The notes beneath the pieces are model-generated. The model was not told where the DNA came from, searched no databases, and saw nothing but the letters and a program-made list of their open reading frames with translations. From a virus, in the UHGV virus genome UHGV-0120107: a stretch of DNA of 15,363 nt; one strand, given 5' to 3'. How positions within the stretch are numbered: the stretch's first letter is position 1; every line of letters begins with the position of its first letter. Position numbers and translations under genes: made by a program. Positions 3,801 through 8,533 of this stretch are shown piece by piece.

Positions 3801-4100
3801 ATGACACAAGCAAGTTATAGCAAGCCAACACAGCGAGAAATTGATCGCGCTGAAACTGATTTACTCATCAACCTGTCAACGCTTACCCAGCGCGGTCTGG
3901 CAAAGATGATTGGCTGTCATGAATCGAAGATAAGCAGAACGGACTGGAGGTTTATTGCTTCGGTCTTGTGTGCTTTTGGAATGGCATCAGACATCAGTCC
4001 GATTAGCAGGGCTTTTAAGTATGCGCTTGATGAAATCACCAATAAAAAACGCCCGGTGTGCAAGACCGAGCGTTCTGAACAAATCCAGATGGATTTTTGA
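3801..4100 (+). CDS. cII: CII-like transcriptional activator (99 aa)
   Basis: C-terminus ...TNKKRPVCKTERSEQIQMDF matches lambda CII (...TNKKRPAATERSEQIQMEF) as I recall it. Gene order cro-cII-O fits. Confidence 0.8.
   Translation: MTQASYSKPTQREIDRAETDLLINLSTLTQRGLAKMIGCHESKISRTDWRFIASVLCAFGMASDISPISRAFKYALDEITNKKRPVCKTERSEQIQMDF
3810..3823 (-). promoter_or_regulatory. Candidate CII-binding site (TTGC-N6-TTGC) of a pRE-like promoter
   Basis: Plus strand GCAAGTTATAGCAA, which is TTGC-N6-TTGC on the minus strand, inside the first codons of cII and oriented toward cro/cI as for lambda pRE. Confidence 0.4.
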
Positions 4101-4145
4101 GTCACTGTGTTACGTCAACAACACATTCAACAGGAGTAATTATAT
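4041..4145 (-). ncRNA. oop-like antisense RNA with its promoter and terminator
   Basis: Minus strand: perfect -10 TATAAT (plus 4139..4144), then about 85 nt downstream a hairpin CGCUCGG/CCGGGCG (one G-U pair) followed by UUUUUUAUU (plus 4043..4072). The terminator lies in the 3' end of cII, as for lambda oop. Confidence 0.5.
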
Positions 4146-4290
4146 GCGAAAGCAGCAGGAAAATAAACGCGTTAATCACCGAAAAGATGTGCTTCGTGAC
4201 CAGTTCTATCAGCAGGTAAATCCTGCCATCGCGGCACCATTGCGGGAGATGCTAAACAAGCACAAAAAATCGGAGGTTAGCCATGAGTAA
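4144..4290 (+). CDS. Small basic hypothetical protein (48 aa) between cII and the replication genes
   Basis: ATG at 4144 preceded by AGGAG. Translation MRKQQENKRVNHRKDVLRDQFYQQVNPAIAAPLREMLNKHKKSEVSHE. Its stop overlaps the start of the O-like gene. Confidence 0.45.
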   Translation: MRKQQENKRVNHRKDVLRDQFYQQVNPAIAAPLREMLNKHKKSEVSHE

Positions 4291-5146
4291 CGTAGCATAT
4301 GCAAACTTCGGGGATAACCGCTCCCCGGTGGAGAAGAAAGTGGCGCAACTCGAAGATGGTTATTCGCGCCTTGCCAATGAGCTTCTTGATGCAACCATGC
4401 GATCAGGTCTGCCTGAGACAGAGCTGTGCATCCTGATGGCTGTCTGGCGCAAGACATACGGATTCAACAAGAAATTAGACTGGATCAGCAATGAGCAATT
4501 CGAGGAGATGATTGATAAACATTACACCCATTGCTCAACAGCTAAAAATAACCTCATCAGACGGAAGGTGTTGATTCAGGAAGGCCGCAAAATCGGTATG
4601 AACACTAACATTTCCGAGTGGCAAACAAAAAATAACGGATTCTGCAAAACATTAGCTAAACCTGCTAAGAAAACCTTAGCGGAACATGCTAATACCATTA
4701 AGCAGAAGTTGCTAACCACAAAAGACAATATTACAAAAGACAAGAAAGACATTAAAAACACATTGCCCGAACAAGTTCAGGCGGTGGAGGAAAAACCGTC
4801 TCAGCCTGCAAACAAAAACCAGGTCATCGATGACGCATTCGAAAACATCTTCTGGCTTGCAGGAATGCGTAAGCTGGAGAAGAAATCATCCAAGTCAGCT
4901 TTCAGAACTCAATATCAGATATGGCGTCGCGATAACGGCGGAACCCCAGAGGAATTTGCCACGTTCCTTGCAGGAGATATTGCATCTCGTGTTGGAAAGC
5001 AATTCGGCTTCGATAAGCTTCACCCATCAACGTACCTCAACGGTCAGCGCTGGAACGACGAGAAGCCAGAAACTATTCAACCACAATCCAAACCATCATC
5101 CGCAATCACCGTATCGAAAACTGGCTACGTGTTTTTCGACAGGTGA
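4283..5146 (+). CDS. Replication initiator, lambda O-like (287 aa)
   Basis: GGAGG RBS. N-terminal domain (...LEDGYSRLANELLDA...LMAVWRKTYGFNK...NISEW...) resembles lambda O as I recall it. The C-terminal half is divergent. Confidence 0.8.
   Translation: MSNVAYANFGDNRSPVEKKVAQLEDGYSRLANELLDATMRSGLPETELCILMAVWRKTYGFNKKLDWISNEQFEEMIDKHYTHCSTAKNNLIRRKVLIQEGRKIGMNTNISEWQTKNNGFCKTLAKPAKKTLAEHANTIKQKLLTTKDNITKDKKDIKNTLPEQVQAVEEKPSQPANKNQVIDDAFENIFWLAGMRKLEKKSSKSAFRTQYQIWRRDNGGTPEEFATFLAGDIASRVGKQFGFDKLHPSTYLNGQRWNDEKPETIQPQSKPSSAITVSKTGYVFFDR
4650..4755. repeat. Candidate replication origin inside the O-like gene (short repeats plus A-rich tract)
   Basis: GCTAA repeated at 4655, 4664 and 4688, with the inverted copy TTAGC at 4676 and a palindromic TTAGCTAA. 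AAAGACA repeated three times at 4721, 4736 and 4745 in an A-rich tract. Lambda ori lies at the equivalent mid-gene position. Confidence 0.3.
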
Positions 5147-5149
5147 ACC

Positions 5150-5257
5150 ATGAAATCAAAAATCAAATCGCTACTGGTCGCTGGTTATAACCACGGCTGG
5201 TTAAGTATTTCGTTTGTCGATTTCTGGTTTAAAAATCTCAATCAGAGGGAATCATGA
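5150..5257 (+). CDS. Possible small ORF (35 aa) coupled to the primase/helicase gene
   Basis: ATG at 5150 with AGGTGA upstream. Its stop overlaps the primase ATG (ATGA). Hydrophobic (MKSKIKSLLVAGYNHGWLSISFVDFWFKNLNQRES). May be spurious. Confidence 0.2.
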   Translation: MKSKIKSLLVAGYNHGWLSISFVDFWFKNLNQRES

Positions 5258-7134
5258 GGCCAAGTGAACTCAGCGACCTGCTTTGGGCGCAGGTTGACAG
5301 GGTGGCTCCGCACCTGTTGCCAAACGGCAAGAAAGAGGGGCATGAGTGGGTTGCCGGTAACGTCAACGGCGACAAGGGAAACAGCCTTAAGGTCAACCTT
5401 AGCGGCAAGAAAAAATGGGCTGATTTCGCCGAGGGAGACGGCGGTGACATGCTTGATTTGTGGATGGCATGTCGTGGAATTAACCTGCATCAGGCTATGC
5501 AGGAAGCGAAAGCATTTCTCGGTATCAAGGATGACGATCACCATTTCGATGCCAAACGTGAGAAAAAATTCTCCAGACCTGATCGCAAGAAAATCGCCCG
5601 CTACGTTACCAGAACAGAATCCCATCTTGAGTACCTGCAATCGCGTGGCATATCGCCAGAAATCGTAAAGCGCTACGAGGTTGTCAGCGGCAAGGTGTGG
5701 AATGGAGAGCGGGAACTGGATGCTCTGGTGATTCCGTACAAACGCGATGGTGAGTTGTTGCAGGTCAAGCGAATCAGCACTGAGCGCCCGGACGGGAAGA
5801 AAGTCATTATGGCAGAAGGTGATTGCGAACCTTGTCTGTTCGGATGGCAGGCTCTGGACGCTGGCGTGAGGGCGGTTGTGCTTTGCGAAGGCGAAATTGA
5901 TTGTATGAGCTATGCGCAATACGGCATCTCGGCGTTATCCGTGCCGTTTGGTGGCGGGAAAGGCGCTAAGCAGCAGTGGATTGAGTTTGAGTATCACAAC
6001 CTCGACAGGTTTGAGGAAATATTCATCTCGATGGACGTTGATGATGTTGGTCGTGAAGCCGCAAGGGAAATCGCAAGCCGACTCGGTGAACATCGTTGCC
6101 GTCTTGTTACTCTGCCGTACAAAGACATCAACGAATGCCTGATGAACGGTGTTACCGAGGATGAAATCTGGCAGTACATCGGCACGGCATCCTACTTCGA
6201 TCCTGAAGAACTCTACAGCGCGCGAGAGTTTTACCAGGACACTATCAACGCTTTCTACGGCAAGCAGCAGTATCTGTTTAATCCACCGTGGGAATCTCTG
6301 GCAGATAAATTCCAGTTCCGTGAGGCAGAGTTGACGCTGGTCAATGGTGTGAACGGTCACGGAAAAACGGAGGTTGTCGGGCATATGGCACTTGAGGCAA
6401 TGCGTCAGGGTGTGAAGACGTGCATCGCGTCACTTGAGCTGAAGCCTGGTATTCTCCTTAAGCGCCTTACCCGTCAGGCGACGTGCTGCAAGATGCCGCC
6501 AGTGCTGGAAATTGACTCTGCATTTAAATTTTATGACGAAAGACTTTGGGTGTTTGGTCTGACCGGAACGGCGAAAGCCGACAGGCTGATCGAAATATTC
6601 GACTACGCTCGCCGCCGATACTGGATCCAGTTATTCATCATCGACAGCCTGATGAAATGTGGCATAGGCGACGATGACTATAACGGGCAGAAGGCGTTTG
6701 TTGACTCGATTTGCGACTTCAAAAACAAAACAAACTCCCACGTCATTCTCGTTACTCACTCGCGAAAAGGAGACAGCGAAGAAAAACCAACCGGGAAAAT
6801 GGACGTAAAAGGCTCTGGAGCGATAACAGACCTGACAGACAACCTTTTCATCATCTGGCGTAACAAGGCTCGCGAGAGAGCGTTACAGAGAGTTCAGAGT
6901 GGTGAAAAGATGTCAGAGAAGGACGAACAGCTACTGGCATCTCCGGCATCTGTTTTGATGCTTGAAAAGCAACGTAACGGCGAAGGTTGGGAAGGTGGTG
7001 TCCCGTTGTTCCTTGACGAGCAATCGCACCAGTTCCTGCAACTTGAATCAGGATCGCCATATAGCTACATCGCCAATATGCCGAAATCGGAATATGACGA
7101 GGCGTGGCGACAGGAAAACGTGACGGAGTATTAA
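5254..7134 (+). CDS. Fused DNA primase (Toprim) / DnaB-family helicase replication protein (626 aa)
   Basis: RBS AGAGGGA. Toprim-like motifs (VVLCEGEIDCMSYAQYG and FISMDVDD). Walker A NGVNGHGKTE and Walker B-like LFIIDSLM in the C-terminal half. Takes the place of lambda P or P22 gene 12 after the O-like initiator. Confidence 0.8.
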   Translation: MRPSELSDLLWAQVDRVAPHLLPNGKKEGHEWVAGNVNGDKGNSLKVNLSGKKKWADFAEGDGGDMLDLWMACRGINLHQAMQEAKAFLGIKDDDHHFDAKREKKFSRPDRKKIARYVTRTESHLEYLQSRGISPEIVKRYEVVSGKVWNGERELDALVIPYKRDGELLQVKRISTERPDGKKVIMAEGDCEPCLFGWQALDAGVRAVVLCEGEIDCMSYAQYGISALSVPFGGGKGAKQQWIEFEYHNLDRFEEIFISMDVDDVGREAAREIASRLGEHRCRLVTLPYKDINECLMNGVTEDEIWQYIGTASYFDPEELYSAREFYQDTINAFYGKQQYLFNPPWESLADKFQFREAELTLVNGVNGHGKTEVVGHMALEAMRQGVKTCIASLELKPGILLKRLTRQATCCKMPPVLEIDSAFKFYDERLWVFGLTGTAKADRLIEIFDYARRRYWIQLFIIDSLMKCGIGDDDYNGQKAFVDSICDFKNKTNSHVILVTHSRKGDSEEKPTGKMDVKGSGAITDLTDNLFIIWRNKARERALQRVQSGEKMSEKDEQLLASPASVLMLEKQRNGEGWEGGVPLFLDEQSHQFLQLESGSPYSYIANMPKSEYDEAWRQENVTEY

Positions 7135-7164
7135 ATGACCATCTACATCACTGAGCTAATAACA

Positions 7165-7193
7165 GGGGCTATTTACACAGTAGCCCTTTTTTA
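7165..7193 (+). terminator. Intrinsic terminator (tR2-like) between replication genes and the nin region
   Basis: Hairpin GGGCTA-N9-TAGCCC (7166..7186) followed by TTTTTT (7187..7192), 30 bp past the primase/helicase stop. Confidence 0.6.
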
Positions 7194-7219
7194 TTGGATT
7201 AAGAACGAGGGGGATCCTG

Positions 7220-7558
7220 ATGGACACCGTTAACGGAATGTGTTCAGACGCACCGCGTGCCAAAAAATGTAAATGCGGAAAATCACCGACAATATTCGAC
7301 ATGGAGAACGGGTGCCAAATCTACTGCGCTAACCACGCCGCTGTGGCGGCCGCGAATTATCGCAGTGCGGTAACGGAGTGGGAAGATGGAGCAAGGCGTA
7401 ATAGGTACTGGAAATCATCAAGCCTTCCAGTTTGTGAAAGATTCAACCACAGGCCAAAACCAAAACGTAGCCGGCGAGACAAAGTGTTGAAAAAACTCAT
7501 GCAAATTAACATGGCTGGTTTTGTCAGATTCGTGAGTGAAACGACTAACGGGGATTGA
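7220..7558 (+). CDS. Hypothetical Cys-rich protein (112 aa), first nin-region gene
   Basis: Strong RBS GAGGGGGA. Cysteine cluster CKCGKSPTIFDMENGCQIYCANH suggests a zinc-binding fold. Basic C-terminus. Confidence 0.55.
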   Translation: MDTVNGMCSDAPRAKKCKCGKSPTIFDMENGCQIYCANHAAVAAANYRSAVTEWEDGARRNRYWKSSSLPVCERFNHRPKPKRSRRDKVLKKLMQINMAGFVRFVSETTNGD

Positions 7559-8083: not shown

Positions 8084-8533
8084 ATGCAAATCGAGATGAT
8101 CAAGACCGCAGGGGGAGTATTCGCTCCGGCGTTTGAGCATGACCTTCCCCGCCTTACCAAGTTCCAAAACGGCGAGATGTACACAGCCGAATTCAAGTTA
8201 ACCCGCAATCCTGCATTCCATCGAAAAATGTTCGCGTTCTTCAACTTCTGCTTTCAGCACTGGGCTGCTGACAAGGCAGGTCTTGAGCATGCCGACGAAA
8301 CCACTCAGTTCAACCGGTTCAGAAAAGACCTGACGATACTGGCTGGCTTCTACGACATGGTGACGAACATTCGCGGTGAGGTTAGGGCAGAGGCTAAAAG
8401 CCTGTCATACGGCAGCATGGAGGCAGATGAATTCGAGCGTTGCTACAGCGCCATGATTAACGCAGCTATCAAGCATGTGTTTGGCAAGACGAAAGACCAG
8501 AACGTGCTGAATCAGCTCTACAACTTTTTCTGA
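8084..8533 (+). CDS. Hypothetical nin-region protein (149 aa); possibly DUF1367/YbcN-like
   Basis: GAGG RBS. Sits where DLP12-type prophages carry ybcN. The family assignment is a tentative recollection. Confidence 0.55.
   Translation: MQIEMIKTAGGVFAPAFEHDLPRLTKFQNGEMYTAEFKLTRNPAFHRKMFAFFNFCFQHWAADKAGLEHADETTQFNRFRKDLTILAGFYDMVTNIRGEVRAEAKSLSYGSMEADEFERCYSAMINAAIKHVFGKTKDQNVLNQLYNFF

Follow-up and report, generated by a model that had tools for sequence, protein, structure and literature searches.

Organization of the replication region

The window analyzed in this study is a stretch of 15,363 nucleotides of phage DNA (UHGV virus genome UHGV-0120107). Its replication region consists of three genes in the same orientation, encoding an O-like initiator, a 35-aa protein and a 626-aa protein that is predicted to be a primase-helicase (Table 1). 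Only 3 nt separate the O stop codon from the ATG of the 35-codon open reading frame (ORF), and the ATG of the 626-aa ORF overlaps the TGA of the 35-codon ORF by 4 nt (ATGA). Because of this short spacing and the ATGA overlap at the helicase start, the three tightly packed genes are predicted to be translationally coupled. A sequence-only reading of this DNA had described a 626-aa protein after an O-like initiator and a gap of 107 bp, and had noted a possible 35-aa ORF in this gap that overlaps the start codon of the larger ORF. All coordinates given there hold, with the 107-bp gap at 5147-5253, and so does the layout of the small ORF.

Table 1. [quoted passage not shown] Functional names are predictions from sequence comparison and modelling.
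Feature	Position	Strand	Basis or remark
O-like replication initiator gene, 287 aa	4283-5146	+	Stop TGA at 5144-5146
Three origin-type iterons inside the O gene	4646-4715	.	Repeat search, sequences checked
A-rich low-GC stretch beside the iterons, containing ACAAAAGACAA twice (direct repeat)	4716-4775	.	
Coding region of the O C-terminal domain, residues ~181-287 (~107 aa)	4823-5143	+	Linked to primase-helicase
Shine-Dalgarno-like AGGTGA of the 35-aa gene	5141-5146	+	Overlaps O stop codon; read from sequence
35-codon gene (MKSKIKSLLVAGYNHGWLSISFVDFWFKNLNQRES)	5150-5257	+	PHROG 21848 match, coding conservation
Shine-Dalgarno-like AGAGGG of the primase-helicase gene	5244-5249	+	Within the 35-aa ORF; read from sequence
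Bifunctional primase-helicase gene, 626 aa, T7 gp4/Twinkle type	5254-7134	+	
Predicted zinc-free homologue of the DnaG CHC2 zinc-binding domain, residues 1-95	5254-5538	+	Profile-to-DnaG alignment
RNA-polymerase (primase) domain, Toprim fold, residues ~103-310	5560-6183	+	gp4 alignment, invariance
Primase-helicase linker, residues ~311-355	6184-6318	+	Position in T7 gp4 alignment
SF4 helicase domain, residues ~356-595	6319-7038	+	gp4 alignment, profile, invariance, fold
K371-T372 codons, empty intein insertion site	6364-6369	+	Comparison with phi24B 'P'
C-terminal tail (…SEYDEAWRQENVTEY), residues 596-626	7039-7131	+	Conserved in enterobacterial clade

Identity of the 626-aa protein

The 626-aa protein matched PHROG 239 'DNA primase/helicase' (E=1e-169), T7 gp4 (E=3e-22 by sequence and 3e-48 by profile) and Twinkle (E=1e-13 by sequence and 3e-45 by profile), and the family profile covers T7 gp4 residues 57-507 in one stretch. 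Pfam Toprim_2 was identified at residues 209-296 (E=3e-12), in agreement with the Toprim-like motifs previously read in the N-terminal half. The Walker A (GVNGHGKT, with K371) and Walker B (LFIIDS, with D464) motifs of the C-terminal half, attributed in the same reading to a DnaB/RecA-fold helicase, are present as well. On the whole protein, Pfam AAA_25 and DnaB_C fell just under their cut-offs (23-26 bits for DnaB_C against a cut-off of 27). Despite these scores the helicase domain is regarded as established, since the PHROG 239 match, the T7 gp4 matches and the fold all indicate it. Chance can be dismissed as an explanation for these matches.

An AlphaFold model based on an alignment of 135 sequences gave a pLDDT of 88.8 and replaced a model from just 16 close homologues (pLDDT 62, with the N-terminus below 45). 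Comparison of the model with T7 gp4 (5ikn_J) by Foldseek gave a TM score of 0.77 and an rmsd of 3.9 A over 500 columns. The primase-helicase family shows approximately 38% identity, and at the catalytic residues of both domains conservation is complete or reaches at least 90% among 65 and 135 relatives (34-94% identity). Overall, sequence and modelled fold identify the 626-aa protein as a predicted bifunctional primase-helicase of the T7 gp4/Twinkle type, with the primase N-terminal to the helicase. The domain search suggested as a check in the sequence-only reading returned a DnaG/Toprim-type primase fused to an SF4 helicase in one polypeptide, whose homology to T7 gp4 and Twinkle extends over the length of the chain. 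Several databases label family members 'Twinkle protein'. A literature search found no experiment or biochemical assay on this protein family; judged from its sequence, the protein should have both helicase and primase activity.

Key residues of the primase domain (pLDDT 85-97) are R131, K172, K182/K183, E212-G-E214-x-D216, D261-x-D263 and K290-D291-x-N293, among which E212, D261, D263 and D291 align with T7 gp4 E157, D207, D209 and D237. The linker may serve oligomerisation, by analogy with gp4. In the helicase domain the motifs H1 (G365-K371-T372), H1a (E395), H2 (D464), H3 (H502/R504/K505) and H4 (G520) were recognized; K371, E395, D464 and H502 correspond to K318, E343, D424 and H465 of T7 gp4. 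R504/K505, G520 and R536 likewise align with gp4 and show at least 90% conservation. The domain also has N537 and K572/R574 among its key residues, and the KxRxxG motif and the invariance of R574 suggest that this residue is the arginine finger. Alignments to distant relatives mostly stop near residue 606; in the alignment of the enterobacterial clade, Y605, A607, N608, M609, Y614 and V623 are invariant in the C-terminal tail. DnaB structures matched the RecA-like core only (E~1e-10, profile). The 626-aa protein is not of the P22 gp12/DnaB type, DnaB_C being below its cut-off and the N-terminal two-thirds being primase.

Comparison of alleles revealed that those of Stx phages, Shigella and Cronobacter have their Walker A loop interrupted by an intein. 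The phi24B 'P' protein (968 aa) equals the 626-aa protein plus 342 aa between K371 and T372. The 342-aa intein is carried by the phi24B, Min27 and F403 alleles, whereas the window allele is without it.

A zinc-free N-terminal domain and its bearing on priming

Searches with the N-terminal 200 residues as a single sequence gave no Pfam or PDB match, and an N-terminal profile of 40 sequences gave no significant PDB match. The family profile, in turn, is co-linear with E. coli DnaG 30-318, PF01807 weakly matched 11 of 40 family members, and NCBIfam TIGR01391 also pointed to homology with the DnaG zinc domain. In the profile alignment the DnaG ligands C40, H43, C61 and C64 are replaced by G35, N38, D57 and E60. 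Cysteine and histidine are absent between H30 and C73 of the 626-aa protein, and a search of 127 relatives for a conserved Cys/His tetrad found none. AlphaFold modelled the domain with a 2-helix/5-strand/2-helix topology (pLDDT 82-92), and G35, G39, G42, S44, D57, G64 and D65 are at least 90% conserved among relatives of 34-60% identity. The N-terminal domain is therefore predicted to be a zinc-free homologue of the DnaG zinc-binding domain.

With all four zinc ligands missing from this domain, the 626-aa protein is likely, though not certain, to act as a primase. T7 gp4 and DnaG need their zinc domains to recognize the template, and gp4 depends on its own for template-directed priming. Metazoan Twinkle has no zinc cysteines and is not a primase, and P22, which has its own gene 12 helicase, still needs host DnaG for priming. 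The 626-aa protein might likewise be an active helicase with a vestigial primase, as in metazoan Twinkle, with host DnaG still laying the primers, as for P22. Replacement of the four DnaG-type ligands, the lack of the tetrad throughout the family and the need for the zinc domain in template recognition all speak for such a loss. We nevertheless consider it distinctly unlikely, as the zinc-free domain itself is strongly conserved and confidently modelled, and 135 sequences show little or no variation at the acidic residues of the Toprim fold and the basic residues of the RNA-polymerase domain. Conservation to this degree is not expected of a dead primase site; the primase catalytic residues have been lost in metazoan (human) Twinkle. 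The family, with its probably active primase, constitutes a natural test of whether a primase of the DnaG/gp4 type can recognize its template without zinc.

The 35-codon gene

The 35-aa ORF matched PHROG 21848 (E=5e-25) and is exactly 35 codons long in 27 diverged loci, with the consensus MKSRIKSLLIAGYNHGLLS..FVRYWF.KL.LR.. for its product. Across these loci synonymous change has almost reached saturation (pS 0.71; pN 0.28), and pN/pS is 0.39 in the frame of the ORF; the two other frames have values of 1.0 and 1.56 and contain stops in 26-27 of the 27 loci. By this coding conservation the 35-codon ORF, listed only as possible in the sequence-only reading, is identified as a real gene under clear purifying selection. 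It is annotated in ES18 (gp60), epsilon34 (gp51) and g341c; several phage records omit it, and it is absent from the PGAP annotation of the E. coli records inspected.

The 3-nt gap and 4-nt overlap are a typical coupling geometry. In some Xenorhabdus and Providencia loci, as in Vibrio and Pseudomonas phages, the ORF is missing and the gene of the initiator directly abuts that of the helicase. These observations would suit a mere spacer for translational coupling whose peptide has no function; alternatively, the gap might hold an RNA element and not a gene. Both proposals are rather doubtful. It is the amino acid sequence that is conserved, not only the open frame, as the pN and pS values of the 27 loci indicate, and the control frames show neither low pN/pS nor freedom from stops. 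An RNA element is opposed by the saturated synonymous sites and by the insignificant fold of the 107-bp gap (z=-1.76). A real gene is thus the preferred reading, and its absence from the loci named above means that the module as such can do without it. Comparison of loci found no strict association of the small ORF with the O C-terminal domain or with the helicase: loci L019, L022 and L024 have the ORF but lack the O C-terminal domain, and loci L014 and L030 have that domain but lack the ORF.

A tentative role for the 35-aa protein, possible though not favored, is that of an accessory subunit of the primase-helicase with its zinc-free priming domain, acting as an O-to-ring adaptor, a loader or a regulator of activity. 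If true, the three proteins would form a minimal origin-to-primosome system, mechanistically unlike both lambda O/P and T7 gp4.

The O-like initiator and the predicted origin

Pfam Phage_rep_O matched O residues 19-113 (E=1e-33), and lambda O aligned with residues 1-155 only of the window O (38% identity, E=9e-26). The N-terminal half is predicted to be an origin-binding domain of the lambda O type. Residues 156-299 of lambda O had no significant match in the window. Since the match is confined to residues 1-155, the P-binding half of lambda O is replaced. The iterons inside the O gene are spaced by 24 and 23 bp, and every iteron has an internal dyad, TTAGC-N7/8-GCTAA; according to its annotation lambda has four iterons at the equivalent place within its O gene, whereas the window has three. 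The neighboring A-rich stretch has a GC content of 0.35-0.39 and an AT skew of up to +0.54 and, by analogy with the lambda origin, is likely to be the DNA-unwinding element.

Pfam and PDB searches with the O C-terminal domain gave no relative. Some records carry the name 'primosomal protein I', and a DnaT-like nature was considered for the domain and rejected, Pfam and PDB giving no support. In all enterobacterial loci the domain accompanies the primase-helicase, even where the N-terminal half is unrelated, and the two co-diverge among phages. Homologues of the domain at 38-48% identity are also found where this helicase is absent. Vibrio phage D65 has a similar domain and encodes no helicase or loader, and in Pseudomonas phage Skulduggery such a domain adjoins a DnaC-like loader. 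An exclusive partnership of domain and helicase therefore holds within Enterobacterales but fails generally, and the homologous domains of these two phages weaken the case for helicase recruitment by the O C-terminal domain.

Replacement of lambda P and a proposed mechanism

The best tblastn match of lambda P in the whole window had E=3, and no homologue was found; nor does the window, comprising about 15 kb of phage, contain any other helicase or loader gene. The proposal that a single-polypeptide primase/helicase stands in place of lambda P is thus borne out, with a gp4-type protein at that place and lambda P without a homologue. The further description of a self-contained module goes too far, as the window encodes no polymerase, SSB, clamp or ligase. 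We conclude that the window carries an ES18-type lambdoid replication module, in which its own primase-helicase very probably takes the place of DnaB (obtained through P) and DnaG. Replication would then be independent of host DnaB and DnaG.

In the mechanism that we propose, O would assemble on the iterons and open the A-rich region, after which the primase-helicase would assemble into a ring on the single-stranded DNA, perhaps with the aid of the O C-terminal domain and/or the 35-aa protein. The ring would unwind DNA 5'-3' and lay RNA primers for extension by host DNA polymerase III. The phage itself would supply helicase and primase, whereas lambda borrows DnaB (via P) and DnaG.

Host DnaB might still initiate, with the 626-aa protein working beside or after it in rolling-circle replication, recombination-dependent replication or restart. 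An O-type initiator may use host factors directly, since Vibrio D65 has its O C-terminal-like domain without helicase or loader and, of 314 lambdoid phages, 34 carry an O homologue only (PMC12315714). Such a division of labor is very improbable here. The 626-aa gene lies at the exact position of lambda P and P22 gene 12, its translation is coupled to that of O, and across Proteobacteria the family occupies the same position beside unrelated initiators, as expected of a replicative helicase.

Prevalence and significance

The arrangement is already known and very common, being the ES18/epsilon34-type module; it was reportedly recognized in the genome papers of ES18 (2005) and epsilon34 (2008). 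Among complete E. coli genomes, 5.6% (~1/18) contain the module; it also occurs in Stx2 phages, and its large gene is routinely annotated 'bifunctional DNA primase/helicase'. This study adds the predicted status of the 35-aa ORF as a real gene, the putative zinc-free DnaG-like N-terminal domain, and the Stx-phage intein in the Walker A loop. Lambda, with its dependence on DnaB, DnaC-bypass and DnaG, should not serve as the model for phages that have this module. Among them are Stx2 phages, for example phi24B, whose primase-helicase gene carries the label 'P', and the point is relevant to Stx-phage replication and toxin output.

Comparison with known systems

ES18 (gp59-gp60-gp61) and epsilon34 (gp50-gp51-gp52) share all three genes with the window, and gene order and overlaps are identical. 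The module also occurs in g341c, mEp043, Sf101, SEN22 and Stx phages (the 'O' and 'P' of phi24B and Min27). Identity to these phages is 93.6-99.4% for the primase-helicase, 69-97% for the 35-aa protein and approximately 77% for the O C-terminal domain; against ES18, tblastn gave 77% for the O C-terminal domain, 94% for gp60 and 93.6% for gp61. The N-terminal, iteron-binding half of the window O differs from that of most ES18-type phages. Since the nucleotide match starts only at window positions ~4835-4993, origin specificity probably differs as well. Published accounts describe the module as an O homologue with a helicase or primase-helicase (PMC2629481, PMC10307801). The 'Eru' replication units of non-lambdoid Stx phages (PMC8044961) were considered and are different modules.

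T7 gp4 (PDB 1Q57, 5IKN, 6N7I) likewise joins a Toprim domain, a linker and an SF4 helicase in one polypeptide, but shares only ~22-26% identity with the 626-aa protein. It has a Cys4 zinc ribbon, whereas the 626-aa protein has a longer DnaG-like domain that is predicted to be zinc-free. The settings differ too, the 626-aa protein belonging to a temperate lambdoid phage, where it follows an O-type origin-binding protein, while T7 uses a transcription-activated origin and a phage polymerase. Twinkle (PDB 7T8B, 8E2L) has the gp4-like architecture in common with the window protein, and the N-terminal domain of metazoan Twinkle is also without zinc cysteines. The primase catalytic residues, in contrast, are invariant in the window family and lost in the metazoan protein.

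Lambda O/P and the window share the position after cII, the O N-terminal domain, and the iterons and A-rich region inside O. The C-terminal half of lambda O is unrelated to that of the window O, and while lambda P is a loader for host DnaB, the partner of O in the window is predicted to be a helicase-primase enzyme. P22, with gene 18 and gene 12, is likewise a lambdoid phage that has its own helicase after an O-type initiator (PMC10307801). Its gp12 is a DnaB-like helicase, to which the ES18-type primase-helicase is non-homologous (PMC10307801); the window helicase is gp4-like and fused to a primase domain.

Organization of the replication region

The window has the layout of a standard lambdoid early-right operon with late genes behind it: N, cI, cro, cII, O, small gene, large gene, nin-region genes (DUF7301, DUF1367, YbcO and RusA), Q, then the lysis genes and terminase. 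Neither a tRNA nor any further helicase or loader gene was found in the window. The three replication ORFs, the gap before the large ORF and the start-codon overlap match the sequence-only reading exactly. Its proposal that a primase-helicase stands in place of lambda P also held. A search for lambda P across the whole window gave no match (best E=3). The three genes are tightly coupled in translation. The O stop codon sits within a Shine-Dalgarno-like AGGTGA and the ATG of the small ORF lies 3 nt further on; the small and large ORFs share the sequence ATGA, in which the TGA of the former overlaps the ATG of the latter, and a separate Shine-Dalgarno-like AGAGGG lies 4 nt upstream of the large ORF.

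Several further features were observed around this region. The minus-strand hairpin in cII matches the lambda oop antisense RNA terminator in position and orientation, and epsilon34 has a small annotated gene (gp49) at the position of the putative 48-codon ORF. Downstream lie a 32-codon hydrophobic ORF containing a terminator-like hairpin and a DUF1367 gene; the DUF1367 family is called Eru1C in non-lambdoid Stx phages, where it belongs to the 'Eru1' replication unit (PMC8044961).

Features of the replication region, aligned residues and related alleles. ORFs are from the ORF map and sequence; residues of the 626-aa protein are from residue-level alignment with T7 gene 4 protein (gp4)
Feature	Position	Strand	Description
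Terminator-like hairpin	4046-4076	-	within cII 3' end; strong, 12 pairs then T run
Putative 48-codon ORF (MRKQQENKRVNHRKDVLRDQFYQQVNPAIAAPLREMLNKHKKSEVSHE)	4144-4290	+	spans cII-O gap; shares 8 nt with O start (ATGAGTAA)
O-like ORF	4283-5146	+	287 aa; stop TGA 5144-5146
Iterons	4646-4715		three, within O gene; spacing 24/23 bp
A-rich, low-GC stretch	4716-4775		after iterons; ACAAAAGACAA present twice
O to large ORF gap	5147-5253		107 bp
Small ORF	5150-5257	+	35 codons
Primase-helicase ORF	5254-7134	+	626 codons
Equivalent of Toprim intein site	5893-5898		codons E214-I215
Empty Walker A insertion site	6364-6369		codons K371-T372
32-codon hydrophobic ORF (MTIYITELITGAIYTVALFYWIKNEGDPDGHR)	7135-7233	+	immediately 3' of primase-helicase stop; initial 33 nt match epsilon34 NinA gene
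Terminator-like hairpin with TTTTTT	7164-7188	+	inside 32-codon ORF
nin-region gene	8084-8533	+	149 aa; Pfam DUF1367, E=8e-21, two stretches of 198-position model
Toprim acidic residue	E212		gp4 E157
Toprim DxD	D261, D263		gp4 D207, D209
Toprim acidic residue	D291		gp4 D237
Walker A	K371		gp4 K318
H1a	E395		gp4 E343
Walker B	D464		gp4 D424
H3	H502		gp4 H465
K371/T372 insertion alleles	L002 2552-5458; L028, L029; P0012, P0151		L002, phi24B 'P'; L, related loci; P, family proteins
35-codon gene of phi24B	L002 2445-2552		without annotation
O C-terminal-domain homologue, Vibrio phage D65	L072 3129-3923
O C-terminal-domain homologue, Pseudomonas phage Skulduggery	L073 3084-3848

The primase-helicase and its active sites

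The earlier suggestion of a Toprim-type primase and a DnaB/RecA-fold helicase in a single polypeptide was borne out by domain, profile and fold comparisons. Pfam Toprim_2 matched residues 209-296 (E=3e-12), AAA_25 and DnaB_C scored slightly below their cut-offs, and the full protein corresponds to phrog_239 'DNA primase/helicase' (E=1e-169). Among solved structures, the single sequence matched T7 gp4 (E=3e-22, residues 192-539) and the mitochondrial helicase Twinkle (1e-13). A family profile of 65 sequences matched gp4 at E=3e-48 across residues 57-507, that is, the complete RNA-polymerase domain, linker and helicase, followed by Twinkle (3e-45), DnaB helicases (~1e-10) and Aquifex DnaG (3e-7). 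An AlphaFold model based on 16 close homologues was of low quality (pLDDT 62), whereas one based on 135 sequences was confident (mean pLDDT 88.8). Superposition of the latter on gp4 chain 5ikn_J gave TM 0.77 and an rmsd of 3.9 A across 500 columns, with Twinkle, DnaB and DnaG ranking next.

The catalytic residues aligned to gp4 are invariant or at least 90% conserved among both the 65 relatives, whose alignment has a mean column identity of 38%, and the 135 relatives. Both active sites are thus intact and under selection. The same level of conservation was found for R131, K172, K182/K183, R504/K505, G520, R536/N537 and K572/R574.

Comparison of family members revealed inteins at both active sites. 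Stx2 phages phi24B, Min27 and F403, one E. coli and one Shigella flexneri chromosome, and Cronobacter carry a 342-350-aa insertion in the Walker A loop, exactly between K371 and T372. It begins with Ala, contains two LAGLIDADG-like motifs and ends ...THN before Thr. We take it to be an intein that carries a homing endonuclease; it probably falls in the class without an N-terminal nucleophile. PMC2807308 already lists such inteins in the 'Primase' of Shigella prophages. A second, different intein (~305-312 aa; Cys first, ending ...GN before Cys) interrupts the Toprim catalytic motif (EGE|ID) in distant members of ~900-930 aa (P0147, P0181 and P0189).

The N-terminal domain lacks zinc ligands

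Residues 1-95 did not align to the gp4 Cys4 zinc ribbon in the family profile, and neither the single sequence nor an N-terminal profile gave a significant Pfam or PDB match for them. The NCBIfam dnaG model covers residues 26-143 (E=1e-9), and Pfam Zn_ribbon_DnaG gave weak, co-linear matches to 11 of 40 family members (best E=4e-4), its positions 26-92 aligning to residues 26-92 of the window protein. When compared with E. coli DnaG by itself, the family profile aligned to residues 30-318 in a single co-linear stretch (E=7e-10, for this one comparison). The zinc ligands of DnaG (C40, H43, C61 and C64) align to G35, N38, D57 and E60. No Cys or His occurs between H30 and C73 of the window protein, and no Cys/His tetrad is conserved among 127 relatives; G35, G39, G42, S44, D57, G64 and D65 are conserved. 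The modelled domain (pLDDT 82-92) comprises two helices, five short strands and two helices. From these alignments we conclude that residues 1-95 are a zinc-free descendant of the DnaG-type CHC2 zinc-binding domain. The zinc ligands are the sole defining gp4/DnaG feature tested here that the window protein lacks. The missing ligands are the chief ground for supposing that the primase is inactive, a reading that is improbable in view of the conserved catalytic centre.

The 35-codon ORF is a gene

The small ORF, raised as a possibility in the sequence-only reading, proved to be real. Its product matches PHROG 21848 and is annotated as ES18 gp60, epsilon34 gp51 and g341c gp46. The records of phi24B and Min27 lack the annotation, as do several further phage records, Stx2a phages among them, and the eight listed RefSeq (PGAP) E. 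coli records (of 304 matching genomes), where only 'replication protein' and 'toprim domain-containing protein' lie under the match. In total 66 related loci were fetched, and the 38 closest, epsilon34 and phi24B were checked for the ORF. It has exactly 35 codons in 27 diverged loci, where the helicase is just 58-99% identical to that of the window, from Escherichia, Salmonella, Citrobacter, Pantoea, Xenorhabdus, Morganella, Arsenophonus, Serratia, Rahnella and others (consensus MKSRIKSLLIAGYNHGLLS..FVRYWF.KL.LR...).

In a Nei-Gojobori analysis pS was 0.71, close to saturation, and pN was 0.28. The pN/pS ratio of 0.39 compares with 1.0 and 1.56 in the two alternative frames, which are interrupted by stops in 26 and 27 of the 27 sequences. 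Variability was highest at third codon positions (0.38), followed by first (0.26) and second (0.16), and predicted folding of the region's RNA was not significantly stronger than that of shuffled sequences (z=-1.76). Together, these results indicate that the ORF is protein-coding and under purifying selection. Some Xenorhabdus and Providencia loci, and the Vibrio and Pseudomonas phages compared here, lack it, and their initiator gene adjoins or overlaps the helicase gene; hence it is an accessory of one sub-lineage and not part of the module core. Our preferred guess, held with low confidence, is that the protein acts as an accessory or adaptor of the primase-helicase.

Initiator and origin

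Pfam Phage_rep_O matched residues 19-113 of the window O (E=1e-33). Its alignment to lambda O was limited to residues 1-155 (38% identity, E=9e-26), and no counterpart of the lambda O C-terminal half was found in it. The origin-like repeats within the gene each carry a TTAGC-N7/8-GCTAA dyad, and the layout of iterons followed by an A-rich stretch is that of lambda ori.

A distinct conserved domain, for which no Pfam or PDB relative was found, makes up the last ~107 residues of O. This domain accompanies the primase-helicase across 36 related loci and is kept with it despite an unrelated N-terminal half in phi24B and loci L025-L032. Megablast matches to mEp043, Sf101, epsilon34, SEN22 and phi24B start within O, at ~4835-4993, which marks the point where the origin-binding half of O, with its iterons, has been joined by recombination to the remainder of the module. 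In isolated phages the domain diverges together with the helicase: it is ~77% identical when the helicase shares 94-99% identity, and 54-60% identical when the helicase shares 59-61%. These patterns fit the lambda paradigm of an exchangeable, partner-binding C-terminal domain, but physical linkage alone could explain the co-divergence. Homologues of the domain (38-48% identity) occur in D65, with no adjoining helicase or loader, and in Skulduggery, with a DnaC-like gene next; 'O-only' modules of the D65 kind are noted in PMC12315714. Because these two homologues occur without this helicase, we infer a specific O-to-helicase contact with only moderate confidence.

Comparison with known replication modules

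By analogy with lambda and T7, O would bind the iterons and open the A-rich region, and the primase-helicase, with no loader of the P or DnaC type, would assemble into a ring on the strand thus exposed, unwind 5'-3' and make primers. Host polymerase III, SSB, gyrase and ligase would perform the remaining steps. The description of the module as self-contained is too strong, because helicase and primase are the only functions the phage supplies. It is possible, though rather doubtful, that the microprotein and the zinc-free domain together characterize a minimal primosome with a mechanism of its own.

The primase-helicase is already known and common, and its family is very large. Matches comprised more than 2,300 clusters at 90% identity (the closest with 5,632 member sequences), 8,229 clusters at 50% identity (E<=1e-3) and 89 phage records (E<=1e-100). 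Of the 5,426 complete genomes of E. coli, 304 have the gene. Databases label these proteins 'bifunctional DNA primase/helicase', 'toprim domain-containing protein' or 'Twinkle protein', among other names. Among species-representative genomes, Shimwellia pseudoproteus has the closest full match (99% identity). A search of the accessible literature found neither biochemical nor genetic work on the ES18-type subfamily. PMC2629481 and PMC10307801 describe the module as an O homologue together with a helicase or primase-helicase, and PMC2629481 also mentions an ES18-type protein whose N-terminal domain is of the lambda type. This study shows quantitatively that the 35-aa ORF is a gene and describes the zinc-free DnaG-like domain residue by residue; it also adds the mosaicism of the O C-terminal domain with its counter-examples, and the intein-bearing Stx-phage alleles. 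The O, small gene and primase-helicase of the window are an ES18-type replication module, as in ES18 (gp59-60-61) and epsilon34 (gp50-52).
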